The notes beneath the pieces are model-generated. The model saw only the letters and a program-made list of their open reading frames with translations, did not search any database and was not told the DNA's origin. Both the position numbers and the translations under genes were made by a program. DNA of 64,000 bases. Origin: Geosiphon pyriformis uo1 (lineage: Eukaryota; Fungi; Glomeromycota). Numbering within the stretch: the stretch's first letter is position 1; the number at the start of each line of letters is the position of its first letter. Positions 1-52,199 of this stretch are shown one piece after another. Location of the stretch: assembly GCA_016748015.1 (NCBI GenBank), contig JAAOMT010000664.1:873518-937517 (forward strand). The letters are read 5' to 3'.

Positions 1-3000
1 TTATTTAGTTATTGGCAATAAGTTGGTTCTAAAACTAAATAAAATAAAAAGTAGAATAGATAATATTATAAAAGAGTAAACAAAAAAATGTTTAGTATCA
101 AAAATTATGCTTAATTATTGATTTTCTCAATATATACTTTTAAATTATATAAATAATAATGTATTCTCTAATATAATAAAAAAAATTGGTTTGGCAGAGT
201 TAAAGCATATAATTAACTATTTTTTTAATGGCAAAATTGTTGGTCTTTTTAAAATTTTAAATAAACTATAAAAGCATAATAGTAATACTATTTTAAAATA
301 TCTTTTGAATTTGTTGAATGATTGCTTAGTTTTAAAATTTGTTTCTGAATCTTAAAAAAAAAATTGGGTTTTTATAATTCTAAAACCACATAATTAAAAA
401 GAAATGTTAACAAATACTAAATTTATTGCTTTAATAAAAACAACAAGAAAAATTTTATTAAAGATACTATTAAACTGAATTTTTTTTGCTTGTAACAAAT
501 TTAATGTGCTTTTTAGAAATAATTTTTCTGTGTTTAAGAACACTTTTACTTGAAATTTTATCTTTGCAATAGGCTCTGTTATTAAGAATGCTTTAAAAAA
601 AGATAGAAAGATGTGATTGATTTTACAGAATATGTGCAAAGCTTATAATTCTGCTGGCTGAATTTATTTGTAACAGAGTCTAAAATAAATAAAAATATAC
701 AAGAATTTTATCAGATTTTTTGGCAATCTGTATGAAAATAGAATTAATAAAGTGATAACAAATTTTGGACTCTCACATAAATACAAAATACATAATAATT
801 TAAACCAAAATAAAGTTTTTTTATCATTTTTTTAGAAAATATTTTACAATTTTTTTTTGTATAAGATTAAAAGACAAAAGCATTTGTGTAGATATTATAT
901 CAATATTAAATTTGTTGCTAATTTAAAAAAAATAGAAGCCAATCTAAAAAAAAATGTTTTTTTTGTAATTAGTGCATTTGTAAATAATACAATTTAAATA
1001 AAAAATAGTCATGTATCTATGCAATATATTTTGGACTTTATTAGTGAATTTTTTTTATCAATAATATTTTAATTAGCAATAAAAAGATAGTAGCTATTTC
1101 TATTAATCAGAAAATTAGAGTTGCTTTTTTGTTTATTAACAAGTTGTTAATTGTAATAGTATATAAGAGTAAACTACACAAATATTTGGAGATTTTTTTG
1201 TTAACTAAGAGTATATTTAAGTTAAGCTTGGCTAAAACATATTTAGATGTTAGATTTTTTTTAATATAATTTTAAGAAAACTTTAATAAATAAGCAATTT
1301 TTTTACTTGGTGTTGACTATACTACAGCCAATTGTTAGTTATAAAAAACAGTTTAATTTTGTCTTAAAGAGTATGTGTTGTAAGTAAAATATTTTAATAA
1401 GAAAAAACTTAGAACCAAGACTAATTTGCCAAGATTTTTTTAGTAAATTTTTGTATTATTCTTTTTTGTATAAACTAAAAATTTTTAAATAAATATAGGC
1501 AAAAAATAAGACTGTTTTAGTGATTGTTTTTTCTAATGCTATTGGTATTTTTGAATGTTTATTTGATTATTAGTTTTTAAATTTGCAAATTTTAGGATAA
1601 ATACTTTTAGATTTTTTGCAGTTTCTGTAAAGTTAAAAATTAATCTAGTAAACAATTTTTTTACAAGTGTAATAAAATTTTTTTTGGACAATAAGATTTT
1701 TTTAATTAATAATCTGCTTAGTATTTTCTATAACTTTGGCAAGTTTTTAATATTAACAATTTTAGAGATTTTTTGTTATCATAGTGTAGTTACTTTATTA
1801 AAGCACTTTAGTATGGCTTTTGATAATAAGCTTTTAATAATAGGCTTTTGAACAAGCATAAAGCAGTTAGAAATTAGAAAACATTTTGTTATTAGAAAAA
1901 GTTGAATTTAAGAAGTTTAGTGTCTTATTGGTTTGATATTGTTTTTAGATTTATAACTACTTTTTGTTCTGGTTCTTTACAAGTGTTTTTTGTCTTTAAC
2001 TTCTTTAATGTTTTAAATTCTAATAACTTTTTGGCTATTCTTACTAGTATTACTGCTTACTTATATTTGTTTCTTAAGTATTATATTCAAAAAAAAATTA
2101 TTTTAATTGATGATTAATATTAGATAATATTTACTACTTTGTATATAATATTTATAGATTAATTAATTATGTTAATTGGAAAGCAGATTTTAATACAAAA
2201 ATTATGATTGGTTCTTTTGCTTACTATATTAATTAATTGTATATAATGTTAATTTGGCATTTGGATTCTTATATATATATTGAATTTACTAGTAAAATAT
2301 TTTTAAATCTGCATATATATATTATAAAAGCTATTTATAGAAAGTTGTTAGTTGTCATTAGAAAAAAATTTTATGACAAATACTACTTTAGTGTTTTGTG
2401 TTTGATGTATATTAAGATAAAATTTTCTAATTATGTGTTTATCTGCCTTAATAATACTAATTTACATAAAAATATAGTTCAAAAGATAGTTTTTTGTTGG
2501 AAATTCTTAGTTAATATTAATTTTTTTTTAATATTAATGGTTATTTAAAAAATTTAACAAATTTATTAGATATTAGTTAATATAAAATTATTAGTAAAAG
2601 TTTTGTCATAAAAAACTGATTTGAGAAAATATTACTGGTATTTAAAAATAAAAAAAAAACTGTTTTAGTGATAATAAAATTTGTTTACAAATTTGTTAAA
2701 TAATATAGAATAGTAATATGAATTTTTAGATCTAAATTCAGAACAAATATAAAAAATAGTGAGTTGATAAATAATATAAAAATATTTTTGAATTGTTATA
2801 TTTTATGTTTTTTTAGTTGTTAGACAATATTGTTTGTTTATTTGAGATTAATAAGATATTTGTAATTAGTTTTGGTTTTTGTAAATCCTGTTTGTTCTAT
2901 TTTAATATAAGTAGTAATATTATAATTTAGATAAGTATATAAAATAATCTTAATTAATCCAAGTAATTGATTACATATAGAAAGTGTGTGAGTTATATTT

Positions 3001-3080
3001 AATTAAAAATTTTTAGTTTGGTTTTTTGTATTAAATAATAATTGAATTGCACTCATTAAATAAAAAATAAAAAATAAAAA
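1..3080 (+). mobile_element. LINE copy A: heavily decayed 3' half of ORF2 (RT, C-terminal Cys motif), 3' UTR and A-rich tail; 5' part outside the window
   Basis: Degenerate translations match ORF2 of the 52-59 kb LINE (e.g. LTNTKFIALIKTTRKILLKIL at ~405-470, SAFVNNTI at ~971, FYDKYYFSVLCLM at ~2370). 2940-3080 matches the reverse complement of the 3' UTR at 52065-52200. Confidence 0.9.
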
Positions 3081-5611: not shown

Positions 5612-6607
5612 TGTTACTAATAAAATTTTCACTATTAATTAGCATAAAATTACTCTTATAATTTCTATTATTAATTAGCATATATTAATATTGTTTCAAG
5701 TATTATTTATTATTTAATTAAATTATTGAATATTATTATTCAATTAACAAACTAATTTGTACAATAGAAATTAAAATAATTAGATTACAAAATACTTTAA
5801 ACTATGTAACATTTAAGAATTGACTAAAATTTGTAAAAATTTGCTAAAATAATAAATAGTTTACTAAAATAGTTAATAATTTATTAAAATAACTTGAAAT
5901 TTGTCAAAGTGTATTTTTAGTTTATTGAAATTATAGCAAAGAAAAAAATTCAAGTTTATAGACTAGTATTATAACAAGTTGTATAAAAAAAAAGCTTTTT
6001 TCTTTAAGAAAATGTATTTTATCTTAGAATTATTTTACTCAAAATCATCTTAATTTGAATAAATCATCTTTTACAAAAAATAATAAAAAAATTAATTAAT
6101 TAAGATACTTTAAAAACCCAAATTTTGCAAATCAATTACATTTGAAATTTTCCAAAAACCAATTTAACATTTTGAAATTAATTAGCTACCAATTTTAGTA
6201 ATTTGTTAGTAATCTTAGGCCTAAATAGAAAACAATTTTTTTGATGAAATTTTATTTTTTTTATATTTTTATATTTTTTTATATTTTTATATTATAATAA
6301 TTAGAGTAATCTACAAATAAAATTTTTGTAAAAGAGTTGACTTTTACAGCAAAGTAACTACATATTTTTAAGTAAGCTTTCAGATAAACAATTCTTAAAA
6401 AAAATTGACTTGTACTACAAAGTAACTACATATAGTAACTAATATAGAATTGACTATTTTACTTATAAGTTTAATAATATAAATTATAAAAAATAATTTA
6501 AAAATAAATTCAGTTATCAGAGGTTTAACTGCTTTCAAAAAACGTAAATTTAAAGCAAACAAATATTAACAACATTCAAAAAAAAAGAACAAAAATCTTT
6601 GGTAACA
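5612..6607 (+). repeat. 5' LTR of Gypsy A
   Basis: Begins TGTTAC and ends GGTAACA; followed by PBS-like TTTGGTATT; aligns along its length with 32015-32995. Confidence 0.88.
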
Positions 6608-8043: not shown

Positions 8044-8993
8044 TGTTACAAATAATTATTTGGAGTGTTGAAACAAATAACAAACTTGTAACTTGGTGCT
8101 TAATAATTGGTAATATTGATAATTTTTAAAGGTTTTGGAGTCTGAAGATTTTAGAGTCTGAAGATTTTAGAGTCTAAAGATTTTGAAGTTTGAAGGTTTT
8201 GGTTAAGTTTTTTGTATAATAAACAGAGATTTAATTAATAGTTTTTTTCATGAATTTTTTTTTCAGCATAATAACCAGTTTAATTTAATAGTTGTGTTTT
8301 TTTAGTAAGCTATTTTTAAATTTTTACTCTTATTTTTGGGTTTTTTATTAGGCTATCCTTAATATTAAATACTTAATACTTAATTATTTTAATCAATTAA
8401 TAAACAACAAAAAATAAAAAAAATAAAAGAAAATAAAAAATTAGTATTTTGTTAATAGCTGTAATTAAGAGCTATTAGTTCAGTATGATTAAGTCTTAGA
8501 TTCTATTAACATGAAGTATTGATAGTGTGAAGTTGATTAATATTTCTTAATTAAATAATGATAACATAAATTTAGGTAATAATTAATATTTTATTGATAT
8601 GTGTTTTAATTCTACTTTAAGTAATAAAAACTACTTTTTAAAGGAAGAAGTATTGGATAATTAATGGTTTTAACTGATTTTTTTCAATTGATTCTGTCTT
8701 TTCTGTTTTTAATACTCTCATTATATATACATATTTATTGTTATATAAGATCTCATATTTTCTTAAGCAATATGTTCTATTTTTTTTGACAATGTACTTA
8801 TTATTAAGCAATATGTTATAATTTTCTAACAATGTGTTTATTGCTAAGCAGTATATCATAATTCACTAACAATATGCACATTGTTGAGTAATATATTATA
8901 TTTCTAATATTGTGCTTACTTGCTATGTCCTATTTTCCTATTGGTCTATTTTTCTATTTGTTTTTTCTATTTTTTTTCTTTCTATAAGTAATA
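8044..8993 (-). repeat. 3' LTR of Gypsy B
   Basis: Aligns with 17146-17918; adjoined by TTATTTCTTCTTTT (a polypurine tract on the minus strand); contains ~4 units of a 17-bp tandem repeat (GAGTCTGAAGATTTTA-like) at ~8138-8200. Confidence 0.88.
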
Positions 8994-11900
8994 TTATTTC
9001 TTCTTTTAATATTAAGCTCCATCAAAATTTTCATTTTAAATTAAGTTTATTACTTCTCTTTTTAATACTGTTTGTTTAATTCTGTTCTTTATTTTTTCAT
9101 ATTAAGAGTTGTTTATTTTTTTCTACTGGTTAACAATTATTGTTTTTATTTCTTGGTGTAATAGTATTTCTGGATAATTTTGAAATATACTGTGTAGTCA
9201 GTAGATTGTTTTGATGTATAGTCTAGAATTTGTCTTTTTTCTAATGAAATCTTTAATCTGTTGTACTATTTCTTAATTGAATATTCTTTTGGATTTATTA
9301 ATATATAATTTTTGGATATTTAGCTTTTGTTCTAATTGATAATAATAATATGATATTGAAAGTTGTTTTATCTATAGCTTCTAATTTTTTTTAGTTAGTT
9401 TTTCTGTTAAAATTATTATTACTATTTTTTTAAAAATGTTTTTTACTTTTTCTATAACTTTATTTAATCAGTGTTTTGTTTGGTTTTGTAGTCACTAATA
9501 AGGAATAATTCTTGTTTTTTTTCTTTTTTGGTATTTTAATAGCAAATTGTTTAGTGATTAATAACAATTTCTATGTTTAATTGTTGTTGATTTATAGCTT
9601 AAAATAATTGTTAAGCCATTGTGTAAATGTAGTTTGGAATTTTTATTTTTCTATTGTTGGTTTTGTCATGTATATTGTGTTTTTATATACTATTTTTGTA
9701 AATCAATTTAACATGTTTGTGTTAATAATTATGATTGGTTTTAGATTTTATGAAATCTCATCTGATTGGACTAATATTTATTGTACTTCTAGTTGTAGAA
9801 TATTATTAATAGATAATAATACTATATTGTAATATGGTTTCAGTTGATTTTTATGTACTGCTTTAGCTAAGATTTTGTTGTTTTATCTTAAATTATAAGC
9901 TCTATTTTCTAGAATTTTTTCAATGTAAAATGGTTTGTTCTATTTAGAGTCGAATTTTCTACTTTATTGTTTTTCCACTTTAGTACAATATAAGAGTACT
10001 TTGTTTCCAATTCTAAATTTAACTGGTTTATTTGATAATTGATTATCATGTTGTTTTTTTTGTTTTGTTTGTAACTTTTGTATATTATCAGCTGTTATTT
10101 ATCTTTTGTTTTCTAAAGTTTTTATTAAATTATATGTTTTTTTTAACAATGTTTTTTGGAAGTTGGCTTTTGTTATTGGTTCTGTTGGATATGTGTTAAT
10201 ATCTATTTTAATTAATAATGTTGCTGTTTTATTATACACAAGTTTAAATAGTATTGTTTTTATGGTATTTTGCTTTATTATCTAATAAGCAAATAATACT
10301 AATAATATAAATAAATTTTATTTGTCCTGGTTTTTTTGGCTGATCTTAGTTATTGCTTTACATAATATTCTGTTGAATCTTTCAACTAAGTCATTTGTTT
10401 GTGAATAATATAATAATAATAATAGTCTTTTGATTTCAAATTTTTGACTTAATTTTGTTAGTGTTCTGTTTACAAAGTAAATTTTTTGATCTAATAATAA
10501 TTTTTTTGAGCATTCATGTTAAAAAATCAAATTTTGGTATATGAATTTGGCTATGGATTTTGCATTTGCTCTTTGAATTGCTTTTGCTTTTGGTTATTTT
10601 GTAAGATAGTTCATGGCTATTACTATATAACAATTGTCTCTGTTGGTTATTGTTAATGATCTAACTAAGTCAATTCCAATTCAATCAAATAGTTGTCTTA
10701 TTTTAATTGGTCTTAGCAGTTTACTGGGTCTTATTTCTCTTTTTTTTTGACAAGCATTACAATTTTGAACATATTAGATAATATTTGGATATATGGATGA
10801 CTAATAATATCTTTTTTTGGTTTTTTTTATGATTTTTTATTTATGAAAATATTCTGTTGTCAAATCTAAATACATATTAAACAATATTGTTTTTTTTTCT
10901 GGTTTTGTAATTACTCTAAGTAACTAATTTGGATTTTTTTTTGTTTTTCTAATATAGTATATTTTGGTAAGTAATAAAATATTTTGATTGTTGTTTTATG
11001 TTGTTTTGTTTTTTTTGAGATAATTTTTTCTTGAACTATTGAGTATTAATATAATATTGGAGTTGTTGATATTTTTGTGTATTTATTTTTTGTTATATTT
11101 TTGGGTTGAAATGTTTTTAGATTTGTCTTATCTATGATAAACCATCAGCATTTTTTTTTTATAATATACAGTATAATTAAATAGTAATAGTTTTATTTTT
11201 TATTTTGCATAGCAATTATCTCTAAATTTTTGCTTTTGGATTGATGTCAATTTTTTGTGATCAGTATATACATCAAACTTTTGACTTAAATATTCCTTCT
11301 ATTTAATAACAACTCAATAGATAACTAAATATTCTAATGCTGGAGTTCTATAGTTCTTCTTAGCTGAACTTAAACTTTGGTTAACATATGCTACTAAATG
11401 TTTTTATCTATCTGCTCTTTTTTAGGACAATTCAGTTCTTAATGTTTGACTGAATGCATCAATAGTAATAATAAATAGCTTGTTGTGATCTAAATAGATT
11501 AATACTAATGAATAAGCTTTCTTCTTAAGATATTAAAAGCTTTTTATTGGGTTTTAGTCTATTTATATTTAATATTCTTTGCTTGTAGCTAGTAGAATAG
11601 TTGAGCCAGTTTAGAAAAATTTTGGATAAAGTAACAATAGTATTTAGCAAATCTCAAGAATGCTCTTAATTCTATCAAATTAGTTAGTACTAGAAAGTTT
11701 TTAACTATTTTAATTTTGTTTGGGTCTGTTTTGATGCTGTTTTTGCTTATAACATATTCCAAAAACTTGAATTTTGTTTTGCCAAAGAAGCATTTGGTTG
11801 TATTAACTTTAATCTAGCTTTTTTTAATCTTTTTAACATCTGTTGAAAATAATAAAAATAATTGTTAAATGTTTTTGAAAATACATTGGTGTTATTTAAG

Positions 11901-12929
11901 TAGATAATTACTAATTCCTATAGTAGTTTAGTGTAAAAAATTTTCATAACTTATTAAAAAGTAGCTAAAGCATTGGTTAAACCAAATAACATAACATTAA
12001 ATTCAAAATTTTCTTCTTTAGTAGTAAATACTGTCTTTTTTTTGTTAGTTGAATTTATGGCTATTTGCCAGTAATCACTATCTAAATCTAATATTAAAAA
12101 CCATGTTTTTTCTTCAAAAGCATTAAATAATTTTTGGATCTATGGAATTGGATAGCTGTCTTCACAAATAATACTATTGAGCTTTTAGTAATTTACACAA
12201 AAGTGGATTTTTCTATTCTTTTTTTGGATAAGTACTATTGGTAATAACTATGGGTTTATTGATAATTAAATTAACTTGTTGTTCAACATTCTGTTGATTT
12301 TTTGTCAAATAATTTCATCGCTAGTGGATAGTGCTTAGTATATTTTTTGTTTAATTAATATTGTATTTTCCATTTTGATCTGGTGTTAAATAATGTTAGT
12401 TCTGCCAAATTTATTTTTACTGGCAAAGATGTCAATAAAGTTGTTGAATAGTATTTTGAATTATATCTGTTAAAGTGGATCTAAATTTTTTAAGTTTATT
12501 TGTTTCAATTGTTTTTATTATAACAAATAACATTTTTTTATTTGTAAATAGTTTGTGATATAATATTCACATATTCACAAAGCTGTGAAAAGTCTGGAAT
12601 AGTAGTAAGTACTTGATTCTTAACTTTAGTGCTTAAATATTTGATAGTAGTTCTATTTGGTATTTCTATAAGATTTCTAATTGTGTTGTATATAGAAATC
12701 TTGATGTGTTTATTGTTTTTGGCTAGTATATAGAGATTAATAATAGCAATTTTTCTTGATTTACAAATGTTTGTTTCAGCTTCAAAAATTTGGAGTTTAT
12801 TTTTTACTTTTTTTTCTATTACTATTATATACTAGTTATATGATAAAATAAAAATTGATTAATAAGTAAAGATAATTTCTCTCTTATTAATTGTTTCTTC
12901 TTTTATTATATTAACTAGTATATCTATTT

Positions 12930-13345
12930 TACTTATTAATTCAAATTTTTTTATCTTTCTTACTGTAATTCTTAACTTTTTTTTTGTTTTTATTAACACT
13001 AACTGAGCTATTTTAACCAAAGGCAGAAATATTGTCTGTGCTATCTTTTTATTTAGTTTAATTATGTATTTTTTTTCTGAGTTATTTTGTAGTATTACAA
13101 TAATATTTTTTACATATCTTGTATCAATTATTTTTTTTTAATATTAATTCTGTTTTTTGCTAAATTAGATCTAGAGACTAGTTGAATTATTGTTGTTGCT
13201 AAAATTTTCAGTGCTATTTTCAGATCTATACTGGTGTGCAAATAAGATTCCAATATAATGGCAGTTTTTCCTGAATACCTGAGATTAAACTCTGTGTTAA
13301 TATTATATGTGTGTTTTGGCGTAATACTTTGATTATTATTGCTAA
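12930..13345 (-). pseudogene. dUTPase domain in Gypsy B pol (degenerate)
   Basis: Manual translation gives TEFNLRY...IQLVSRSNLAK...IIDTRYVKNI...KIAQTIFLPLV, which maps to dUTPase motifs AGFDL, RSSLA, IDAGY and IAQ after reverting transitions. Confidence 0.75.
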
Positions 13346-16300
13346 ACTATTTTAGTTTCTGCTCTATTGACAGATTTGGAAGTGTGATATATTGTTTGAG
13401 ATTATAATCAAAATTTGAATTATTGTAATTATTGTTGCTATTATGAACAGAGTTGGAACTGTTGTTGTCATTATTATTAGAGTTTAAATTACAATTAAAT
13501 TTTGATTTTGATTCTGATGCATATTTGCTGATTGGTTTTTTTTCTTTGGAGATCAAATTGATCATGTATGATAGTGAATTATAAATAATATTACAATTAT
13601 CACAATATTCAAAGTCATTAGAGATTAAACAATATTTACAGAGTCTTATATTTAACTGTTTCAAATACTGTTTTTGCTCTTTTTTAGTGGGTGCTAAGTC
13701 TTGATAGTGTTTATGGAATTGTTTTGAATCATTTAGAATGTCAATAAATACATCTGGATTGGAAATAAGAATAATCTTGACAGGTTCTGGTGGGTTATTC
13801 TTAATTGCCAATATTTTACTGGACAAAGTGCTTTTAACTTTGGCACTTGTCATTTGTCAAATTTTGTCTTCATTATGTGAATAGTCATCTAAGCATAAGA
13901 GTGCTTAATTTTATGTAGCATTAAAAAATGTTCTTCAACTTATTTAGTCACTTATTAGAATTATGTATTGACATAATATATTACATGTTTCTCTTTAACT
14001 AGGAATGTTATTCCATATTTTTTTATTAAATAGTGTTTCTCTATAAGTAAGACATGACTTGTTGTCCCATTTTTCTTGTTACTTAAGATAACTAAAGTAT
14101 TTTCTATAACACAATTTACAGTAGTAATAAGTGTGTGTCCAATAGTTTTTGTCTGACAAAATTTAAGTTCTCATAAAAGAAAGCTTTTTATTGCAGTCAG
14201 TATATCTTAGTAAAATATATAGTAAATTTTTTTTGTGTTTATGAAGTAGAATTAATTTCAGCCACTGGTTATTTTTTTAATGGCTGTAATGGCTTTGGTT
14301 TTGTCTTTTTTTTTCCTTTCCTTTTATTATTTCAAGAGAATATTAGTAGTAATTTGTTGTGCTTATTCTCAGTCCATAAAACTTAATTGGCTTTTCAGAT
14401 AGGGTTTTTTTTTCTTTCAACTCAATCAATGGTTGCTTTTTTGAAAGAGCTTTAAAATGTTCACAGATAGTTAGTACTTAAGTTTGCTAACCATTTTAAC
14501 TAAAATGTAGCTCTTGTATAGTCTAGTCAAATATGGCATTGGTTTTGAACAGCTAGTTGTTACCAATAAGAGCTAAGTACTGTATAGCTTCCATTATAAA
14601 AATTTTGATGAGTATTATAATGCTGTTGATTTTAAATAAAAAGTTGTCAATTTTTGCCAATAGAAATCTTAATGATTTTATCGACAGTAATAATTTTAGC
14701 ACTGATAGCACAATTAACTTAGTAATCTAATTGGTTTATAAGTTGTCAAGTAATAATGCTGTCTGCTAAATTATTATTAAAAATAAGTTTGATAGATTGG
14801 CTATTGACTTTGGCATTAATATATATAGTAATAATTAATTTAGTGTTAAGAATAACTTTACTGAATAAAAGTGGCATTGTTGATTCTTCTATTTTGAAAA
14901 AAAATATGGTTGTGAGTGATTTGTTTTCTATAATAGTTGCTAGTAAAATGTTGTTAGTAAGTAGTGTTTTTGGGTTTTTCAAATAATTGGATAAATTGGG
15001 TTCTGAAGTAACCAGAAGACTTAAATAGTTTTGGAAATTTGGGTTTTAAGTATACTTACTTTCTGAACTCTATTAACATAATCCTAATAGCTAATTTAAT
15101 AAACTAAGGATTAATTGATGCATTACTATTGTCAATTTCCAATTCTGTTATATGTGCATAATTTTCAGTTTTTGGTTGCCAGTTGACATTTGAACTAGAT
15201 TTTGGAGTGGTATTTGAATTGGTGGTGGTTGATAGATAATTTGTGACTGTAGTTAATAAATAACTAGTGCTGAATTTTGATATACTAGAGGTAAATATAT
15301 TGATTGTTGTGTTATTAGAATGTAATAAAGTTGATATTATTCCTGATTCTGGATATAGTTCAGAGTTTGAAACTAGCAATTAGGGTTTCAATATTGATTT
15401 TTCAATTATTGGTTATTTAATCTTATATGGCAGTCTAATTTTAAGAGTTTTTGTTTACTACAATAATAGCAAATATACATTTTTTGCTGTTATAATTGAT
15501 TGGTTAATAAGAATAATAGATGTAATTGATTCTGAAAACAATTGAAGTTTCCTTGATTGTTACAGTATTATAGTAATTAATAAATTGCCTAATTGTTAGT
15601 TAAGTATCTTTTAATTTTCTGATTAATAACTTTATCAAATTGTTTTAATTTGGTATTTAATTCAGATAATCTATTCATTATTAAGTTAACAGCTTGGGTA
15701 TAATTGGCTTTAAGTTCAGCTGATTCAAAATCTTGGACATATGTGATTATATCTTAGAGAGTATTTAGATGTATTAGACATATTTGTTATAAAAGACTAC
15801 TATATAATTCATAAATAAATTGATTTAGAATTTGTGCTGCTGTAAAATAGTCAGCTTGAATTGCTTAAATCTGATACAGATTTCTGTAAAAGCATCTTAA
15901 GTAAGTAGTAACTGCTTTTGTATTATCTTGTTTGATGGTAGTAAAGTTAGTTAATAGATGATTAATACTATTATAATTGTTAAAATATTAAAGAAATACA
16001 ATTTTAAATACATTACAGATTTGTGGCTTGTTGATTAAGTTCTGATATCACAAGTTAGCAATATCCTATAAAAAGTAGGAAATAGCTCAAATAGCTTTGA
16101 TATTGTCTCAGTTATTGGCTGTAATTGTCTTGACAATATTGTTTAACTATGCTTGAGCATTGTTTTTTTTACCAGTAAATTTCTCAAGTTTGGTAATAGA
16201 TACATATGCTATTGGTGCTAATTGTTATTGTTGTTAAGATTATTATTAAGATAGAGTAATTAGTGCATATGGTGGATTGATTATAATGACTGAAGATAAG

Positions 16301-17145
16301 TTTTACTGAATAATAGAAGTAAAATTTAGATTGTTTGGGTTTGTCAAAGTTTAACTAATCAGAGTTTGTATTTTCAGATTATTTGAGATTGAGTCTTAAT
16401 TATTTTTTTTCTAATCACTGTCTTTCTTTTTTTTCTGAATTAGTATTTTCTTAATGACTAATAGATCTGAAATCTGGTTGAAATGATAGTAATCAAAATT
16501 TTAATAGTATTATTGGTTATGATTTGAATTTTTCAAAGAAATTATTATAAGTTCTTAATAATTTGGCTTTTTCTTAATTATTTTAGAACAGAATTTGAGA
16601 TAATAATATTTTTATAATTGATAATAATAAAGATTCTGATGATATGTATATAGTATTTTCTAGTATATAATAATATAATAAATAAATAGATAAAATGATT
16701 TTTGGTTTTTTTCAAGTAAACAGTTGTATTTTTCTTGGTGTTTTTGTTGGTGTTTGTAAATTTTCTGTTTGTAAAAGTAATAAAAAATTGCTATTGGGTC
16801 TAATTTCCAATTTCTCTGTTTATTTCTGTGATTAATAATATAAACAGATAGTTTGGTAGAAGTATGATGCTTTGGAATAATTTACTGTAAAAATGGTTGA
16901 AAGTGGCTTTTGGATCTTCTTAACTTTCCAAGTAGAATTTAATTTATTCATTAACATAGTAATTAAAAGCTAATTTTATTGGCCAATAGTTATTTGTTAA
17001 TTTAAAGTAAGTTTGGTAATGTTAAAATAAAAATTTCACAAATTCTAAATAATTTTCTCTTATAATTTCTTGATCTGTTACTTTTTCAGATAATTGCTGT
17101 TAATACTGGTTTTTTGTTAAATTATATCTTATAAGGAGCATTAAA

Positions 17146-17918
17146 TGTTATAGGTAATTATTTAAAATATTGAAACAAATAACAAATCTGTAATTTGGTG
17201 CTTAATAGTTGGTAATATTGGTAATTTCTGAAGGTTTTGGAATCTAAAAGTTTTGGTTGAGTCTTTTGTATAATAGACAGAGATTTAATTAATGATTTCT
17301 TCTATGAATTTTTTTTTTCAATATGATAACTGGTTTAATTTGGCAGTTATGTCTTTTTAGTAAGCTATTCTTAAATTTTTATCCTTATTTCTAAGTTTTT
17401 TACTAGGCTATTTTTAATGTTAAATACTTAGCACTTAATTTTTTTAATTAATTAGTAAACAACAAAAAAATAAAATAAAAAAAAATAAAAAATTAATATT
17501 TTGTTAATAGCTATAATTAAGAGTTATTGGTCCAGTGTGATTAAGTCTTGAATTCTATTAACATAAAGTATTAATAATGTAAAATTAATTAATATTTTTT
17601 AATCAAATAATGATAATATGAATTTAGATAATAATTAATATTTTATTAATATGTGTTTTAATTCTATTTCAAGTGGTAGAAAACTATTTTTTGAAGAAAA
17701 AAATATTAGATAATTAATGGTTTTAACTGATTTTTTTTAATTGATTCTGTTTTTAATACTTTTATCATATATACATATTTTTTGTTATATGAAATCTCAC
17801 ATTTTCTTGAATAATATGCTTTATTTTCTTTGACAATATCCTTACTTGCTAAGTTTTATTCTATTATTGGTCTATTTTTCTATCTGTTTTCTTATTTGTA
17901 CTTTTTTTATAAGTAATA
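17146..17918 (-). repeat. 5' LTR of Gypsy B
   Basis: Aligns with 8044-8993; followed on the minus strand by TTTAATGCTCC, consistent with a G>A-mutated TTTGGTGCTCC primer binding site. Confidence 0.88.
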
Positions 17919-19172
17919 CTGTTATTATTGTAAAATTCTAAAACATTAAAAACAAAACTGCCAACAAAAAAATAATTAATAGTATTTTTAATTATAGTAA
18001 TTCTATTATTAACTTCTATTACCATCTTACTATTTATTAAAATTTCAACACTAAAACAATTACTATTAATCTGTTCTACAACCCATTCAACAATAATATT
18101 AATAACTATCAAGTTAATAATATTAAGTACTTGCCTAAAAATTGGATCAACAAAACCAATTCACTTTTCAAAACCAATTTATAATAAACAACAATAGATT
18201 TAATTTTAATAACCAATTAATTTTTTAAAATCTAACTCAACAAAAGCCTATATATTATTACACTTAGCCAAATTATCTCACATTGCCAGAAGAATCAGAT
18301 TTTTAACAAATTGTATTTTTTGAAGATAAAACTATAATACCAGAGCAAAATTCTTCTAGTAATACAATTTTATTAGTCATAATTATCCAAAATACCAATC
18401 TTTCAGATATATTTTCATCCAAATTTGAAGCAAATATATTATTCATTTTGCTTAACAATATAGTTATTACAAAACAAAAAACAATTACAGCTATGTACAC
18501 AAAAGCCAAAGTTAAAAAAAAAACAATTCAATTAATCTTAAACAATAGATTTATCAGAAGCATTATTACTTATTAGTTAATACAACAGCTACAATGAAAC
18601 ATCAACAAATCTGCCCAAACAGTCATTATTACAACAGATGATATAAAGAAAACACCAATATAAAAAATTAACAATTTCTTATTTATAATTGATAGAATTA
18701 CCATTTTAATTAAAGTTCTTATTATAAATACTAATTTCTTGTCAGAAATAATTGGCTTTTTAAGGCCAATACTAATCTAGATTAGAAAATCTAGGAACTT
18801 AAAATCTTATATTAGTAATAATATACCAGAGTATTTAATACTTATGATACTTTTAACAAATAATTAGAAAAAGTTTCTGTGTTTGAATTTGAAAAAAAGA
18901 AAAAAAAACTGATTATTAAAACTTATATGGTTCTTGAATCAACATTCAATTGAGCTGAAAAAACTGAACAAAAACTCTTTGAAAAAATTAGTAAATAAAA
19001 CATCTCATATTCAAAACCAGAACTAAAAAAGCAATCATCTTATATTCCACTAAAATACCAAAATTACAACAAAAAGCTTTTATTTATAAAAGCTTGTATA
19101 TTACTAGAAAAAAAATATAAGATGCATATTTGCTATTACTATAAAGTCTGCTACTGGGAATGATTTGAATAC

Positions 19173-22100
19173 TATTATTTATAAAAATTCAGGAATTTGT
19201 AATAAGAATAAAAAAGTAGTTAATTAGAAATAGACATAGTAAAAGAAAAATTTCAGAATTTCTTTTGAAGAATTACAGAATTCCAGGAATTTCAAGATTT
19301 CTTTTGAAAAATTACAAGATTTCAGAAATTCCAGAATTTTTGGTTAGAAAAATTAAAAAAATTCAAGAAATTTCATATAATATTAATTATGTATATATAA
19401 AAAGAGCATTAGAAGCAAAAAAGACAGAATTCAATTTAGAATTAATACTTACAATTAATTAATTATCCAATATTTCTTCCTTTTAAAGATAGTTTTCTAT
19501 AACTTGAAATAAAATTAAATTACATATTAATAAAATATTTATTATTATCTGAATTTATATTATTATCATTTGATTAAAAAAATTAATTATTTTTACTTTA
19601 TTAATACTTCATGTTAATAGAATCCAATACTTAACCATACTGAACTAATAGTTTTTTTTTTTATTAACATTTAATAAGTAAGGTCTAAACATTATCTAGT
19701 ACTATATATCAAAAAAATAATCTATACTAAGTATGAATCATGCACTTTCTACACATGACCAGCCATTTGGGCCAATCAGAACATTACTATGCATCTATAT
19801 GAACAGACACTAATTTACCTATACCCAAAAAAAACAAACAAGATTTGCAAAAACCAAAACAAATGCCCAATGTCTCTGTGATGCCAAGCAATTTTACCAC
19901 ACCAGTAGAAAACCCCAAAGCCAAGTCCAGAACTGGTACAAGAGCTAAACTATCAAGTGGAATTAGGTTGGTTTTTTCCATATAGGTTTGATGCTTAACA
20001 TAAACCAACCAAATATTATTTCTAAAGGCAAAACCAAAAGATCTCACAAACTTAACAACTTTTAAACCAGCAATTTTAAGATCATGGAAGATGGAAACCA
20101 CCTCGCAAAGCCAATTATTAAACACAAAATCTTTATAAAGGACTATAAAGACTAAGAAATCAGAAGCACAAGATGACAACAGCTGCAACACACAAGAAGA
20201 GGAGTGTGAAAAGCCAGAAATTGTTCTCCAAGAAGCTGCATGAAAGTCTAATATGTGGAATTGAGCAGAATTGTCGACTTTGCAAAAAAACACATAATCC
20301 AAAGTCTTCACATTGCCACAATACAAACAAAGCACACTAGAGTAATGTCTATTATAGAAATGCTTTCGAATTGCCACAGAAAGCTGATGATACAGAGTTT
20401 TCATAAAATAAGTACGAACTCCAGCCAAGAGTCTGTTAGTAAACCTGGTGGCCATATGCAAATCAGGATGCCAAAACAGTGAAGAGCAGGGCCAATCTAC
20501 TTTAGAAAGCAAGCTACTTGCCAAAAGCTTAGAGCCAGAACCAACCTTCCAGTGTGCATGATATATAGAGTGACAAATATTATGAACAAAATGTCTGGAA
20601 TTGCCAGAAACAACATTACTATCAGCAACAATATAATGTTCATCCAAGTGAAAAAGAAGACATCAATCAGAGAGAGATGCATCACCAGCAATCAGGTTAG
20701 CATGTTCATTCCTGGAAACACCAGAGTGACTTTTAATCTTGTGCCAATTAACACTTAAATTCCTACTTTTAACAATATTGACAATATGTCGGCACTCAAT
20801 CCAACACTAATTGTGGAAATCAGGACACACAAGACCCAATTTAGTCTTACATACATTCAAAACAGATTGACTATCTGAAAACAAATAGACAGAACTAGAT
20901 AGAAGAACACACTCTAAGGCCAATGCAATAGCCTGCAATTCTGCCAGAGTAGATGACATTAAACCTGATATACCAATATTCAGACCCAAACCAATGTCCT
21001 CAAAAAAAGCAGCGGCACCAGCCTTACAGCCAGCTGTGCCCAAATTCTTCAGAGATCCATCTGTATATACTGATATATCACTCAAACTTACACGAGAGAG
21101 ATGGTCACGAACAGACACAAAATTATGAAATCTAAGAATGTTCAAAGAATCAATACCACCCAATACCAAAGGGCCAGTAGGAGTGGAATTCACACTATTG
21201 AGAAAAGCAGTAGCAAGCTTGAACCACTCAGAAATGGGGCCACGGAGACTGAGTCTCTTCCACCACTTAAAGATGTGCCAATCAAATACAGCACCATGAC
21301 AATCACAAAGTTAATCCACAAAGGCAACACTGAACCTCCAGAGAGAAGGGAGAAACTTGGAAAATTTTGACTCACCCAGAACAGCAGACATGAGCACCCC
21401 ACCATGAAACCAAAAAGAATTGGCTAAAGAGCCACCCAAAAATAAATTGCAATCAAGAAGAATTCTGACCATGCCTGCCAAGAAATTATTAGAAACACTG
21501 ACATTAATACGAACAGAAAAACTCAATAGATGAACAGGACACCAACATTGAACTTGTAAGTCATAAGACCTATAAGAAAATAAGCAACCCAAAATTCCAC
21601 CAAAGTTCACAAAGCTAACAAGAAAGGCAACTTTGCATTCAGACTGAATCTGTGAAAAAGACTTCAAACCATAAAAAGAAGAGTGGTAAAGTGTATTACC
21701 AGGAAAATTGAGTGGGAGACCAGATTTAAGCTTCAAATCTTTGCAAACCAAAGCATCTCACTTGCCACAAATGCTGACTGGAACAAAACTAAATTGTGTA
21801 CAATAGCTAACTATGAGTTGGAGAATTGCTGACACCAAATACAAAAATTGTTTATCAGAAATGGCTTTTTTCAGAACCAAATTGACAAAAAATTGAATGT
21901 CTGAATGTGTCTTAGCCAAACTAGGTTTCGAAAGACTCTCAGTCGAAAAAAAAATACCTAGATACTGATGAGACTTCTCCTTCTTGGTAATAGATATGAG
22001 TGAACCACTGATAGAAAGGAAAGGATTGCTGACCCTGCTATTGATCGAAATGGCCATTGTCTTGTCATTATTAATTAAGATGTTGTTAACCCAAAAAAAT

Positions 22101-25100
22101 TCACTGGCAATATTAAGAATATGTTGAGTAGCAACCTAACTGCTACCAACCCAAATTGTGTTATCAACAAAAACACCAGCAGTAAAAAAGGAAGAAAGCC
22201 CAACCCAGAATTTAGAGTGACCACTTCTGGAAACAAAATGAAAATTTAACTTATACCCACATACACTTTCCTAATGCTTGACTTCACACAGCAGAGGATC
22301 ATAAAATATGTGCCACAAAAGGGAGAAAAAAACCTCTTCCTAATCCAGACTATTATGAACATAATAACTATCAGTCAAACCAAAATTCGTCATAACATGG
22401 TTGGTACAATCCTTGTGGATATTACCAAAAAATTGAATGAATTTGCTGCACATCTTAATCCTAATCAAACTTTTCTTGAGATGCTTTCAGCCAACCAAAT
22501 CATAAGCCTTTTGCATGTCTTGTAAAACCAGCCAGAGCTCATAGTCTTTTTCCAAGACATTTTCAATTACTGAACCAATAGCAAAAATGGAGAATTGAGT
22601 AGTCATACCCTTTAAGACTGAAAAATTGTCCTCACAAAGAACATCAAAAGCACTGCAAGCTGTGGAGATCCTATCAGATAAAATCTTGAAAAGAATCTTG
22701 TGAGCCATTTTGATCAAGGCAATGGAACATGTGTTTGTCAAAATGTCTTCCCACTTATAGGGTTTGGAAATCATTAAGATCCAGACTTCCTTCCAAGGAC
22801 AAGGCACAGATTCACCAGTCAAACAAAAATTCAAAAGTACCAACAAAACATCTAAAACCGACTTATCACAATGTTTTCAAAGTTCATTTGAGATTCTTGA
22901 CAAACCAGCAGTTTTGTTATTAGGAAGATCAGAAACTACTCTAAACAATTCATCAAAGCCAATTAAACACATTACACCAGAAAAAGCTTCATCAAAAACA
23001 TACTTTAATGGATGGTATTGGCAGCACCAAACATCTGAAACATTATCAACTATCTGATATTTTCTGGTCCAACCCTCCATGATTATATTTACTTTAAACT
23101 TAATCAAACCAGACTCCAAAATTAGTTCATCATCAACAACCAAATGGTTGAGCACCATCTTGTGAAATAGACACTCAAGCATGCTTCTTATCAAGTAACC
23201 CTTATTCACTTCAAAACTTTCCATCTTTTTATCAACAGCAGACTTGATGTTTATCTCTTTAATATACTATGATTTAGCTAATTTAGACACATGATAAAAT
23301 TTTCTGGCACCCATAAGAGCAGAACAAACATGACCAGAGTTCACATCAGAGGTTACCAGAGTCCAAATGACTAAAGCTTTATCACCATCCAAAGATTTCC
23401 AACATTTCATAAGAGACTCAAAATGCTTAACATTCTCCCCACAATATGCCTTAACAATTTTAGAAATTAGAAGTTCCAATTTGTAAAATCTAGAAGAATC
23501 TTTGGTGAAAACTACATCAAAGTCCTTGAATTATTTCTTTTTGAACACTTCATTTGCCGAAAGAACCATAATTTTGTGAATAACTGCCTATATTGCATCC
23601 AAATCCGAAAGCTTCATAAAAGCAACAAATTCATCCGAAAACATAGTCATATTAGCCTTTGTAGTGCACTTAAAATCAACCCATTTATTTTTATCAGCAC
23701 TCTTCAAATCAAACTTCCATCTGTCTCTGTTTGCTTGTTTGCAAAGAAAGCACAAATGCACATCCAAAAGCTCATCCAAACCCAAAGACACAGAAACAGT
23801 CTGATGATCTGTATCAAAATGTTCACTCACATTCACAACAGTGCACTTCATTACCGCATTGATCAAGTTAGACAAAACAAGTATGTAATCAATTGTTTTA
23901 TTCACGCCCCTTGAATTTCTCCATGTACAACTATTCACTACTGGACTGCCTGACAAAGAGTTAACCAGCCCCAAGTTGAGACATCTTTTAAAACTTGCAC
24001 TCTTATGTAAACCATCCTCATTAAAATCACCACCCAGAATGATGAAAAAAGAATTATTGACAGTCTTAGCAACAAAAAAGTTGATCTTACTGGCCTGCGA
24101 GAACTGAATTGCAGAAGATGCACCAGCATAGAACCCTAAAATTGACACTGAGAGTCTGTTCTTGAAAAGTAATTTGATAGAAAAGAGCTGATCAGGCATC
24201 TCAGAAATTTTACATACATGACGAGCAATAGAGATGTTCATAATAATGGCAACACCAGCACCAAGAAAACCCGCATCTGAACCAGAAGTGAAAACTCAAA
24301 TACCATCAAACCTATCCTTGATCCATGGCCTACAACTAGACCTTAATTTCATTTCCGTCACAATCAAAACCAAATTCTCTGATTCCCTATGCCAACAAAC
24401 AATGTTTTTCTGCTTAGCAGAGACATTGATACCCTGAACATTGCACGTAGCAATCTTCCAAACCAGACCACTCATTGGGAAGAATAAGGTAAAAAGGGAC
24501 CCAAACCAGAACACAAAAGATCCAATTTTGCCAAAACAGAACTGACCAAAGCCTCCATAGCTAACATCTTAGACTCCAAACCACCTATCTTGGTGGTCAG
24601 AACCTTTGAACTACTTAGATTGAAACCAGCATCTAACTCAACACTTGAAGGAGGGGGAGAGAACAAAGCCAACACACTATCTAAAGCCATATCTGAATCC
24701 AAAACAGGAGTTATCAGCACAGAGCTGACCAAAAAAAGAGCACCAGAAGACAGCACCATGGGCACCAATTCAACAAAACTCAATTTTCTAAAAATACCAG
24801 AAATCTGGTCAGCCAAAAGTTCAAGAGAGTGCTCCAAAAATGCCAAACAAACAACCAAGGGAGACTTGTCAATTGGGAAAAAAGAAGCACTACCACCCAA
24901 CCCCAAAGCACCAGATGAAAAGAAACCTAAACCATAACCAAAGCCAGAAGGAGAGCCACCAGAAAAGGAAGCAAGAGAGACTACTTGAGCCCACAATTTG
25001 CTACCAAAGACAGTAGAGCAAGAGATAAGAACATTTTTCTTTATATACAACTTGGCTAATTAAAAACAATCAATACTAGAAGCATTTTTTTTAAAGGGAA

Positions 25101-26921
25101 CAGAGAGTGTAAGAACAGAAACATCAAAAGTATTACATTCCAAGGCTGAATGACCAAATCTCCCACACTTTCCATACCGTACTAAATCCAACCTAGCCCA
25201 TGATAATTGCACACTGTCAAAAACAGGCTCAGTACGAAAGGTGGAATCCAAATCCACCTCAGACTCAAAACCAACCACTGCACAACAAACCCTATTGCCA
25301 GTTGTCAATGATTGATTAATGGTGCAAGTTTTCCCACCAGTCTTATCCAAAAAAGTACCAAGATCATGTGCAGTTGTTCCCATTGGCAAAGTAAACAACA
25401 GTGCTTTAAACCAATTCTTAGATGCCCAGGTGTCATGATCACCTACAGCTTTGGCCACACGTATTAAATTTTTCCTGATTAGGAATGACCATCTTGAAAC
25501 CAACTGATCGGCTTGACTTGATTTGGCAAATTTCACTACAGCTTTCTGCCACATGCCAATTAACTGAATTTTGATCGACTTAATTTCTCCAAACTCGGCA
25601 ACTGCAGCGACGATCATTTCCTTTAGGGTATCTATTGGAATTTCTTTGATTACTATGGTCCAATCTGAACATACTCCTGATTTTCTGAGATTAGTGTTTA
25701 CATTGGTCTCTTTTTCTCTGGCTAATGATGTGGCCATTTCTATGTTTTTTTCTGAAGTGAAAGTAGATCAGATGATCCTTTCAAATTTTGAGGGGGTAGT
25801 GGCCCCCCCCAAAACCATTGACTGTTGAAAAAATTTTCCTAATTAACTGAGTCTTTGCCATTGCCGATTTACCTTCCACAGCTGAGAGATTAATATCCAA
25901 AGCAAATGACTTTTTAATTAACACTTCTACAGAAGTCTTGATAATTTTAGGGTCAATCCACTTTTTTTCTAAAAAGATAGGCAAGCAAGAAGGGAGCACC
26001 ACTTTTTCATCATCCATATAAAAGTCGGGAGAGCCAAGTAGAGAACCAAAGCCAGCATCAGTGTTGACTCACTTTGCCTTGGGTGTAGTAGCAGCTAAGC
26101 CCAAAAGAAACTCACCATTCACTCCAAACATGCTAACATTTTTATCCTCACCAGATAGACTCTCCACATCAGAATAAACACTGTTATCAGACCCAGATTT
26201 GCTCAAGAATATATCCCTTTTGTTACCAGAGTGTTTTATATTACCAAAAACAGCTTTTTTCTTCTGAAAAAAGGAGCCATCAGCAGGACCATGAAAAGCA
26301 CCCTTAGGAGTCTTCTTCTTAAGTGTGGTGCTACTAGCATTAGCCTCCATATTCACAAAAAATGAGTTATTATTAGGTAAAGAAATATTGATATAGACTA
26401 AAAAAAAAAAAAAAACTTCTTTTTCAGAAAATGTGCTTTTTAGAGATTTGTAGAAGTAAAAGAGAAAAAAGTTTTTTTTTAATAGCTTTTAATTATGGCT
26501 ATTAACAAAATATTAATTTTTTCTTTTCTTTTTATTTTTTTTTATTTTTTTTATTTTATTTTGTTTTGTTTCTTTGTTTTTTACTAATTAATTAAAAGAA
26601 TTAAGTACTAAGTTATTAACATCAAAGATAGTCTAATAAAAGACCTGTGAAACAAGGGTAAAGAACTCATAAAATTGAGGATAGCTTACCAAAAAAGCAA
26701 GACTACCAGAAGAACTGACCACTATCCTAAAAAAAATTTACAGAAAGGACTTCCAGGATGAGTACTAAAATATCAAATAAATCTCTGTTTATTATACAAA
26801 AAACTCAACCAAAATTTTCAAATCACAAAAATTTTCAGATATTACCAATATTATCAAGCTATTAAATACCAAGTTATGGATTTGTTATTAGTATTAACAT
26901 CTTAAATAATCATCTGTAATA
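19173..26921 (+). repeat. Solo LTR of the Gypsy B group, split by LINE copy B (pieces 19173-~19651 and ~26480-26921)
   Basis: Both pieces match the reverse complement of 17146-17918 and join seamlessly around ACTAATAG; flanked by 4-bp TSD ATAC (19169-19172 / 26922-26925). Confidence 0.85.
19652..26479 (-). mobile_element. LINE copy B, full length, moderately decayed (ORF1 26356->24472; ORF2 24475->19787 with stops and frameshifts)
   Basis: ORF fragments show RRM-like VIKEIPIDT, APE IATCNVQG / LGGDFN / IDYI / TDH, RT LQDMQKAYD, RNase H VYTDGS / AELQAI, and C-terminal CLYCG. Poly(A) tail at 19652-19662; short TSD TAATAGY(TTT). Confidence 0.93.
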
Positions 26922-32014: not shown

Positions 32015-32995
32015 TATTACCAATAAAATTTTAGTCAATAATTAGCATGAAATTATTCTTATAATTCCTATTATTAATTAGTATATATTAATATTGTTTC
32101 AATTATTACTTATTATTTAATCAAATTATCATATATTACTATTTAATTAATAACCTAATTTGTAAAATAAAAATTAGAATGATTAGATTATATAATATTC
32201 TGAACTATGTAATATTCAAAAATTTGTTAAAATTTGTAAAAATTTGTAAAAATAATAAATAGTTTACCAAAATAGTTAATAATTTGTCGAAATAATTTGT
32301 AGTTTATTAAAATGTATCTTAGTTTGTTAAAATTATAACAAAGAGAAAAGTTTAAGTTTATAAACTAGTATTACAACAAGTTGTATAAAAAAAGAGCTTT
32401 TTTTTTAAAAAAAATATATCTTATTTTTAAATTATTATATTTAAAATTATCTTATTTAGAATTAATTATCTTTTATATACCAAAAAAAATAAATATCAAA
32501 TATTTTAAAAAACCCAATTTTTTTTATTGTACTTAAAAATTTCTGAAACCTAACTAATGTTTTGAAATTAATTAACTATTAATTTTAGTAATTTATAAGT
32601 CATTTTAAACTTGAACAGAAAACAACTTTCTTAACACAATTCTATTTTTTTATATTTTTTTATTTGTTTTTATTTTTCTTAGTATAATTATTAGAGTAGT
32701 TTATAAATAAGATTCATGTAAAAAGTTGATTTTTATAGCAAAATAACTACATATTTTTAGTAAGCTTTCAGACAAGCAATTCTTGGAAAAAAATTGACTT
32801 TTATTACAAAATAACTATATATAATAATTAGTACAGAATTGGTTATTCTACTTATAAGTCTAACAGTTCAAATTATAAAAGATAATTTGAAAATAAATTC
32901 AGTTATCAAAAATTCAGTAGCTTCTAAAAAATATAAATTTACAGCAAATAAACATTAATAACATTTAAAAAAAAGACCAAAAACCTTTAATAATA
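32015..32995 (+). repeat. 3' LTR of Gypsy A
   Basis: Aligns with 5612-6607; preceded by a purine run AAGAAAAAAA (PPT); termini mutated to TATTAC...AATAATA. Confidence 0.85.
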
Positions 32996-40049: not shown

Positions 40050-40074
40050 TTTTTTTGGTTTTTTTATTTAAATT

Positions 40075-42328: not shown

Positions 42329-42350
42329 TTTTTTATTATTTAAATTATTA

Positions 42351-48300: not shown

Positions 48301-49117
48301 TTGATTACTACAATCTAATCTAAATACATTTTTTGTTTTTTAAGATTGTGGTTTACAATAATGCTTTTTTTTCAGATCAATAATATGGTTTTTTTTATGT
48401 TTTTTTTAATATAAATATTAATCTAATAATATTTTCAAATTTTAAGAAAGTAATAGCTTTTCAAAACCATTAATAATTAAAAATTTTTTTTAATAATTTG
48501 AATTTTTATTATTACTAATTTGCCATCTATTGTTAAGAGATTAATGTTTAATATAAAAAATTTTTTAATGACTATTTTTACTTAAATTTTTTTTATCTTA
48601 AGATCTATCCATTTTTTGTCCAAAGAGATATTAAGAGAAAAAAAAAATTCTATATATTTTATCTATATTATAGTTAATTATTTTAATTAAAAAACCATAT
48701 TTTAATTCAATATTTATCTTCTTAGCTTTAGAAATTATTGTTATTAAACTAAAAAAAAGCTATTATCAATACTTACTAAAATATTATTACTTTTATTATT
48801 ACTTAATTTACTATCTATATTTGAATATATACCACTTTTAGAGCCAAAGTTGACCAAAAACATATTTTTATTATTATTAAAATACTTGATATTATTTACA
48901 AAAACTTTTTTTTTGGAAAAAAAACCTTTAACAGATCCATAAAAAGCTTCTTTAAACATCTTTTTTTAGACATATTATCACTAAAAATAGCTACCAAATT
49001 TATCACAAAAAAATTATTTGCTTAAGAATAATAAAAATAAAACTACAAAAAAAAACAAAAAAACTTTTTTTCAAAAAACTACTCTTTAAAAAATTTTAAA
49101 TATAAAAGAGAAAGAAG
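42351..49117 (-). mobile_element. LINE copy D, full length, strongly decayed
   Basis: Colinear degenerate ORF1 and ORF2 (GVFVDNTIW ~44830-44855, MAELQIVALFL ~43600-43630, LGKDFN ~46690); 3' UTR at 42351-42485. Confidence 0.88.
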
Positions 49118-49478
49118 TTTTTTTTTTATTTAAATTAAGTAATAAAAATAATAATAAATAATTAAAAAGTTAATACAAAAAGATATAAATATTAAAAAAC
49201 ATTTTTTACATGTATTTTTAATTTTTTAAACAAGCTTAATAGTTATGTTTATTGTTAAAATATTTTTAAAAATAAAAAAAAAATTTTATGTTTTGTTTAA
49301 TTTTTATTAATATTTATTTACTTAATAAATTTTTAAATAATTTTAACATATTTAATTACAATTTTACAAAATTTTAAACTTTTATTTTAATTTTATTTGT
49401 TATTTAAAAATTAAAATTGGGTTTTAAATTTTTGTTTAAACTAAATAATAATAAAAATTATATTTTTATTAACATTAA

Positions 49479-51765: not shown

Positions 51766-52199
51766 ATTAACATTAAAACCAAATAACAAAAAATTTTAAA
51801 AATAGCACTTATAATTTAAAACTTATAATTTAAAATTATTTAATAAAATCTTGTATATTATTTTTAAACAAAAATAAAAATATGTTATTTTTTGTTTTAA
51901 TATAATTTAAATATCTTAAAAAGTTAATAATATGGCTTAATTATTATTAAAAAAAGCCATAAAATTAAAAGTTAGATTTTAAATATTGTATTTAAACTAT
52001 TTAAATATAATTGCTATTTAATAGTTTTTTTGCTTTAAAAAAGTTTTAATTAATTAATATATTTTTTTTTTTATTAATGCATTTAACGAGTATAGCCCAA
52101 TCGCTATCTAGTACATAGAACCAAACTAAGAGGCTCAAACTAAACACGACTCACGCACTTTCTACATGTGGCTAGCCACTTAGGCCAGACAAAGCAACA

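Follow-up and report, generated by a model that had tools for sequence, protein, structure and literature searches.

The repeat stack and the Gypsy B element

The sequence analysed here, called the window, is a 64,000-nt stretch of Geosiphon pyriformis uo1 (contig JAAOMT010000664.1, positions 873,518 to 937,517 of the forward strand), and all positions below are window coordinates. Gypsy and LINE (long interspersed nuclear element) retrotransposons, nested one inside another, fill bases 1 to ~58,900, and two host genes occupy the last 4.5 kb. We counted 8 CpG dinucleotides in 1-19,600, 7 in 26,500-49,200 and 110 in 59,600-63,300, the last at an observed/expected ratio (o/e) of 0.80. A first-pass annotation, made from the letters alone, had proposed that these repeats undergo a C>T/G>A hypermutation resembling repeat-induced point mutation (RIP). 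Here, we find that the repeats lose C and G almost exclusively through C:G>T:A transitions, in every sequence context, and that this erosion is probably restricted to repeats. The element that allows the most direct reading, Gypsy B at 8044-17918, and the related elements around it are as follows.

8044..8992, minus strand: left long terminal repeat (LTR) of Gypsy B, starting TGTTAC and ending ...TA; target-site duplication CTGT at 8040-8043; GC 0.20, no CpG
8993..17145, minus strand: Gypsy B interior, gag-pol with reverse transcriptase (RT), RNase H, integrase and a weak dUTPase match; many stops; GC 0.23, 4 CpG
17146..17918, minus strand: right LTR of Gypsy B; target-site duplication CTGT at 17919-17922; GC 0.19, no CpG
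5612..6606, plus strand: left LTR of the outer Gypsy, an older element enclosing Gypsy B, with Pfam matches in its interior; paired with 32015-32994
32015..32994, plus strand: right LTR of the outer Gypsy, paired with 5612-6606
37522..38336, minus strand: solo LTR of the B family, target-site duplication TTAT/CCAT, no CpG; used as outgroup
19170..26921, minus strand: split solo LTR of the B family (parts ~19170-19650 and 26490-26921), interrupted by a LINE; no CpG
~19652-26480: the LINE within the split solo LTR, younger and less eroded; GC 0.37, CpG o/e 0.15

The outer Gypsy (5612-32994) thus contains both Gypsy B and a solo LTR that is itself split by a LINE. Within the Gypsy B interior, Pfam matches include RT-RNase H (E 7e-14) and the integrase zinc finger (E 1e-5). 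Weak dUTPase matches, below the Pfam cut-off, lie upstream of RT in 8993-17145 (minus strand, E 0.004) and in 27000-32015 (plus strand, E 0.0005). The duplications flanking Gypsy B (CTGT/CTGT, 8040-8043 and 17919-17922) and the solo LTR (TTAT/CCAT, 37518-37521 and 38337-38340, the latter pair already read correctly in the first-pass annotation) are each compatible with a decayed CCGT.

The two LTRs of one element are identical at insertion, and the matching 4-bp duplication on both sides of Gypsy B means that its LTRs were one and the same sequence when it inserted. With neutral alignment scoring, in which transitions (Ti) are not favoured over transversions (Tv), the clean 5′ part of the pair (660 columns) shows 91 Ti and 3 Tv, all three A/T. 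The 62 columns of the 3′ tip show 8 Ti and 4 Tv, and the unedited local alignment, misaligned at its 3′ end, gives 95 and 13 in 699 columns. Finding at most 3 Tv among 94 differences has a probability of 5e-13 at a Ti/Tv of 2, 5e-5 at 5 and 0.024 at 10, and the neutral scoring excludes alignment bias. The earlier estimate of ~18 differences in ~108 bases, all transitions, was about right (15 in the first 98 nt, all transitions), and both kinds of change do occur in each LTR, with 19 C>T plus 23 G>A in one and 20 plus 29 in the other.

Are these changes the remains of CpG sites? Differences affect 49 of 94 C sites that precede C or T and 42 of 76 that precede A or G. Where both copies have C or T after the C, no CpG can be concealed; hidden ancestral CpG is therefore no explanation, and a confinement to such sites, the outcome named beforehand as speaking against the proposal, is not what we observe. 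The base on the 5′ side does matter, with 55 of 84 sites differing after a pyrimidine versus 36 of 86 after a purine (p 0.002).

The direction of change follows from the two solo LTRs used as outgroups, whose alignment is poor toward the 3′ end. They carry C/G at 30/85 and 37/93 of the differing sites (35-40%), at 31/438 and 33/480 of the shared A/T sites (7%) and at 33/66 and 48/77 of the shared C/G sites (50-62%). The 35-40% at differing sites indicates that most changes ran from C/G to T/A, and T>C as the direction is excluded by these states. Each copy is estimated to have lost ~37% of its C/G, against 0.2% Tv. So one-sided a change, on both linked copies and on both strands, is what true RIP would also leave, that is, homology-guided premeiotic mutation of both copies by a RID-type enzyme, in this case with a relaxed context. 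Same-strand runs in the LTRs have Z values of 0.69 and -0.80.

Mutation spectrum of the LINE copies

Besides the nested copy described above, four LINEs lie in the window.

1..3050, plus strand: LINE A, heavily eroded; GC 0.18, no CpG
33000..37500, minus strand: LINE C, heavily eroded; GC 0.16, 2 CpG
42330..49120, minus strand: LINE D, heavily eroded; GC 0.19, no CpG
52070..58910, minus strand: LINE E, young; open reading frame (ORF) 1 open, with RRM; ORF2 (endonuclease, RT) broken; GC 0.44, CpG o/e 0.48

Measured against the young copy E, 53-65% of the C/G is gone from D, C and A at each codon position. In D, transversions by codon position are 0.09/0.04/0.19 and C/G loss is 0.61/0.61/0.60. 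Transversions that fall mainly at the third position make A, C and D older related subfamilies and not plain copies of E; the uniform C/G loss, for its part, postdates insertion, and this uniformity excludes selection or lineage divergence as its source. The earlier description of one family ranging from GC-normal to nearly G/C-free therefore stands for the erosion of A, C and D and fails in taking them as copies of one family and E as unaffected, since the CpG o/e of E (0.48, versus 0.80 in the gene region) shows that E is already eroded. Along the age series this ratio declines from 0.48 to 0.15 and ~0, and the LINE nested in the B-family solo LTR is less eroded than the LTR that carries it.

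The three stops in ORF2 of LINE E had been attributed to transitions, and the homologues agree: Q stands at the first in 34 of 42 aligned proteins (the other 8 are gaps) and W at the second and third in 28 of 29 and 46 of 49. At 53497, TGG is restored by 99% of the read depth in public run X1. A frame change near 55190, which had been overlooked, accompanies these C>T/G>A stops. Taken by themselves the three stops count for little as evidence, since transitions make up 88 of the 479 one-step routes by which a stop can arise.

A genome-wide spectrum was obtained from proteins homologous to LINE E on other scaffolds, all from Geosiphon among the matches listed (120 of 222 for ORF1, 120 of 418 for ORF2). 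Within close sets of 11 ORF1 proteins (at least 83% identity after filtering) and 12 ORF2 proteins (at least 80%), amino-acid changes at majority-conserved positions were projected onto the codons of E, and multi-step or ambiguous changes were dropped. ORF1 yielded 349 changes (38 dropped), with 277 C>T, 16 T>C and 18 transversions, and ORF2 417 (43 dropped), with 320, 28 and 26, respectively. Altogether C>T makes up 597 of 685 classified changes, 501 of them outside CpG. Per opportunity, ORF1 shows non-CpG C>T at 208/4307, T>C at 16/5046 and transversions at 18/18646, so that non-CpG C>T exceeds T>C 15-fold (CI 9-27) and transversions 50-fold (CI 31-86); the ORF2 figures are 320/5303 for all C>T, 28/6378 for T>C and 26/23663 for transversions. 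The pooled rates are 0.053 for non-CpG C>T, 0.138 for CpG, 0.0039 for T>C and 0.0010 for each transversion route, which places CpG at ~140x, non-CpG C>T at ~50x and T>C at ~4x one transversion route. Wider sets of 20, 24 and 120 proteins agree with the close ones. Selection does not explain this asymmetry, because T>C produces the equally conservative reverse amino-acid swaps. A few hot sites are excluded as its source (the rate is still 0.044 once the 8 of 459 sites changed at least 3 times are removed), and so is sequencing artefact, as the host genes are intact and the pattern is alike on many scaffolds.

CpG is the hottest context, ~2.6-3x the others, so that the erosion is broad in context, as first described, without being equal in all contexts. 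On the 3′ side the spectrum is flat (CpA 0.051, CpC 0.047, CpT 0.047; homogeneity p 0.87); after a 5′ pyrimidine the rate is about twice as high (YCH 141/2173 vs RCH 67/2134, p 3e-7). This last preference, common to the ORF1 copies and the LTRs, is what an AID/APOBEC-like deaminase, or ultraviolet (UV) photoproducts at dipyrimidines, would bring about, and yet we hold such an origin to be very improbable. RCA sites, which are not dipyrimidines, mutate at 12/530, ~20x a transversion, and tandem CC>TT codons (3/611) show no clear excess. A 5′-TC preference, unequal strands, clustered changes and C>G by-products mark editing by AID/APOBEC enzymes; here C>G occurs at 1/4477, no strand bias appears, TpC is raised only ~2x, and the LTR differences arose after integration and not on cDNA.

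Strand and load bear on RIP, which proceeds by episodic, strand-coordinated bursts. No strand overdispersion was detected among copies (p 0.91 and 0.72 in the close sets; 0.48 in the 120-copy set), the sense-strand share being 0.38 vs 0.39 of opportunities. The non-CpG load per copy is only 0.02-0.10 and increases with transversions (Spearman 0.64, p 0.026, n=12). Two observations would suit RIP better: a weak same-strand clustering in ORF1, and the fact that no near-identical copy of E occurs among the matches listed (best 90% for ORF1 and 93% for ORF2, in a database clustered at 90%). Together with the flat 3′ context, in which CpA is not favoured, and with RIP indices that are positive in 1 of 103 index windows under the strict RIPper thresholds (PMC6714961) and in 11 of the 103 under a lenient criterion, the absence of strand overdispersion and the 2-10% loss of young copies make true RIP unlikely.

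At the DNA level, 25,638 contigs of run X1 over 49200-58900 show 1,147 C>T/G>A and 552 T>C/A>G places (1699 Ti) and 216 Tv places; at the T>C/A>G places, in the rows shown, the window copy often has the derived base. Because the window itself may derive from X1, this run supplies extra copies and not an independent sample. Runs X2 and X3, with 9 and 3 contigs, were too few for use, and a metagenome scan with the LINE E RT as query gave no relatives among 143 pattern matches. No RNA data set was among the 4 runs listed, which says nothing either way about expression. All 240 listed ORF1 and ORF2 matches are Geosiphon 'hypothetical proteins', and many annotated Geosiphon genes are, judging from these similarities, likely to be decayed LINEs.

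Unique DNA beside the repeats

Two host genes served as controls.

59636..60259, plus strand: ERV1, 100% identical to G. pyriformis G9A89_017538
60728..63151, minus strand: 11-exon gene with an open 505-aa model; introns GC 0.31, CpG o/e 0.83

The ERV1 match (second-best for this frame, Ambispora, 61%) confirms the suspicion that the host belongs to the Glomeromycotina. The 11-exon gene is the putative SPT8 of the first-pass annotation. Both were said to keep normal composition and CpG, and this holds. The repeat spectrum predicts an equilibrium GC of 7% (12% with upper bounds), toward which old repeats have come down as far as 16-19%, whereas the ten intron cores of the 11-exon gene (815 nt) have 31% GC and a CpG o/e of 0.83, fourfold sites 30% GC (100/328) and the 3′ intergenic stretch 34% with an o/e of 0.94. 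This unique DNA contains 29 CpG where ~1.6 would be expected at the repeat level, and the amino acids of ERV1 show no shift to AT-rich residues relative to 7 relatives. If T>C is as frequent in repeats as elsewhere, non-CpG C>T in repeats would run at ~6x and CpG at ~16x background.

The C>T erosion is thus probably restricted to repeats, on the basis of composition at one ~4-kb locus and not of rates. A C>T bias acting on the whole genome, and visible in repeats only because they are unselected, could be defended on the grounds that introns may be kept by selection or gene conversion and that composition is no direct rate. It could also point to the 510 nt that separate LINE E from the ERV1 promoter (58990-59499), with only low-complexity self-matches and, at 14% GC, as AT-rich as the repeats. 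The composition and CpG content of the introns, fourfold sites and intergenic DNA and the unshifted residues of ERV1 make it nonetheless a poor candidate in our view. The 510-nt stretch is an old repeat decayed past recognition, or else unique DNA into which the erosion has spread.

Origin of the erosion and known systems

The first-pass annotation had left a choice between repeat-directed mutagenesis and an all-context methylation/deamination system. The second fits better and RIP proper worse, given the lack of CpA/TpCpG preference and of strand overdispersion, the graded load that tracks transversions and the CpG excess. On balance, and with modest confidence, we favour gradual deamination of 5-methylcytosine (5mC) in all contexts of the repeats. 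Cytosines would be methylated throughout the repeats, at CG by a DNMT1/DNMT5-type enzyme and elsewhere by a DIM-2-type enzyme, and would then be deaminated steadily, spontaneously or with enzymatic assistance, and left unrepaired during ordinary growth with no need for meiosis. The outcome is RIP-like, with copies accumulating stops and finishing near 15-19% GC. CpG is both the most mutated and the first depleted context, and accumulation is gradual and strand-symmetric, as methylcytosine deamination would have it; the non-CpG changes require non-CG methylation or its equivalent.

Several observations weigh against this reading. Methylation and deamination leave the 5′-pyrimidine preference unexplained, and for CpG to exceed non-CpG only 2.6-fold, non-CG methylation would have to be far heavier than in Phycomyces, where transposable elements (TEs) carry CG and CHH methylation with non-CG at 0.5-0.9% vs CG at 3.4% (PMC11258239). 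The same-strand clustering in ORF1 reaches a runs Z of -2.2, which ORF2 (Z -0.16) and the LTRs do not repeat. The protein-based spectra cover missense changes in annotated-intact copies only, with context borrowed from E. Dispersed old repeat pairs in the window have a Ti/Tv of 0.9-4.1, so that the Ti/Tv comparison suggested beforehand bore out for Gypsy B (91:3) and not for these pairs; the outer Gypsy LTRs differ by 123 Ti and 35 Tv in 868 columns, and the three-copy family is not cleanly polarised (apparent T>C 0.05-0.12). We read the low ratios of old pairs as C saturation combined with lineage divergence and misalignment in A/T runs. The outer pair has ~9x the Tv of the B pair (4.0% vs 0.45%) with an equal transition share (14%), which suggests saturation.

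The non-CG enzyme could be dispensed with if methylation were confined to CG and other C mutated through poor U:G mismatch repair in heterochromatin. This would account for the lack of a 3′ preference, for the equal strands and for a load that builds up gradually, and CG methylation of TEs has been shown in Rhizophagus (PMC8647823). However, the low T>C and transversion rates demand a defect specific to deaminated C, and the 32.5-49.5% of C methylated in Rhizophagus (PMC8298701) suggests that non-CG methylation is available; we therefore consider a repair deficit distinctly unlikely. AM (arbuscular mycorrhizal) fungi reportedly retain DIM-2, DNMT1, DNMT5 and RID (PMC8298701), a point in favour of RIP as well, in conflict with another survey that confines RID to Dikarya (PMC5751038).

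How do these features compare with known systems? The erosion shares with RIP of Neurospora and other Pezizomycotina, which depends on RID (PMC12543289, PMC6714961, PMC4352252), its C:G>T:A-only character (91 Ti/3 Tv; 597/685 changes C>T), the mutation of both copies and AT-rich dead repeats beside normal genes. It differs in lacking the CpA/CpT and TpCpG preferences, positive indices and strand-coordinated bursts, in the low, graded load of young copies and in its non-Dikarya host. It is thus RIP-like in outcome, yet we do not class it as RIP. RIP-like defences share a CpA preference, with strong signals in four ascomycete classes only, according to PMC12543289. Mitotic mutation by Dim2 in Zymoseptoria tritici (PMC8016269) is likewise >95% C>T; it is confined to repeats, as is probably the case in Geosiphon, and is linked to a methyltransferase and independent of meiosis, both of which are presumed for Geosiphon. 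It falls >98% at CpA and spares CpG, unlike the Geosiphon pattern with CpG hottest, CpA, CpC and CpT equal and a 5′-pyrimidine bias, a difference that adds to the points against our interpretation. In Microbotryum, rusts and Tuber, TE decay is CpG/TpCpG-biased (PMC4352252), and there too CpG is the most mutated context and has nearly vanished from repeats; in Geosiphon most changes are non-CpG (501/597). A RIP-like claim outside Dikarya also exists for Zoophthora radicans (Entomophthorales, a different phylum; PMC11105155); it rests on CpA-based indices that the Geosiphon window fails.

An enzyme-driven repeat-mutating defence of Glomeromycotina, perhaps of Mucoromycota, with the signature CpG > YpC > RpC and no 3′ preference, is a tentative and rather doubtful proposal; it could be a context-free RIP run by RID or a mitotic DIM-2 mutator. 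In the literature searched, mutation of this kind is not described for Geosiphon or any other member of the Glomeromycotina, the genome papers Malar 2021 and Sorwar 2024 lying outside that search. RIP signatures went undetected in Gigaspora and Mucoromycotina according to PMC8647823, the text parts and 12 of 19 supplement files of PMC12543289 have no Geosiphon entry, and 'RIP' and 'deamination' are absent from the passages searched of PMC11952901 on Geosiphon TEs. As far as this search reaches, the erosion is new for Glomeromycotina.

CpA-based screens miss this equally one-sided erosion and may therefore give false negatives. The spectrum predicts a methylome with heavy CHG/CHH methylation, YC above RC, and suggests a role for the DIM-2 and RID genes reported in AM fungi. 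Its mitotic or meiotic origin bears on sex in Glomeromycotina; if RIP proper is at work, the eroded repeats would be a trace of cryptic sex left in the Geosiphon genome. Ages of Geosiphon TEs computed from LTR divergence or Kimura distance are probably too high and saturate early, and transversions should date these elements more safely.

Finally, a ~2.6-kb element that appears to consist of a LINE ORF1 alone, and has no Pfam match, is present at 49219-51949, 3057-5705 and 39962-42350. It is possibly a non-autonomous LINE derivative, and its left half has the peak summed contig depth in run X1.

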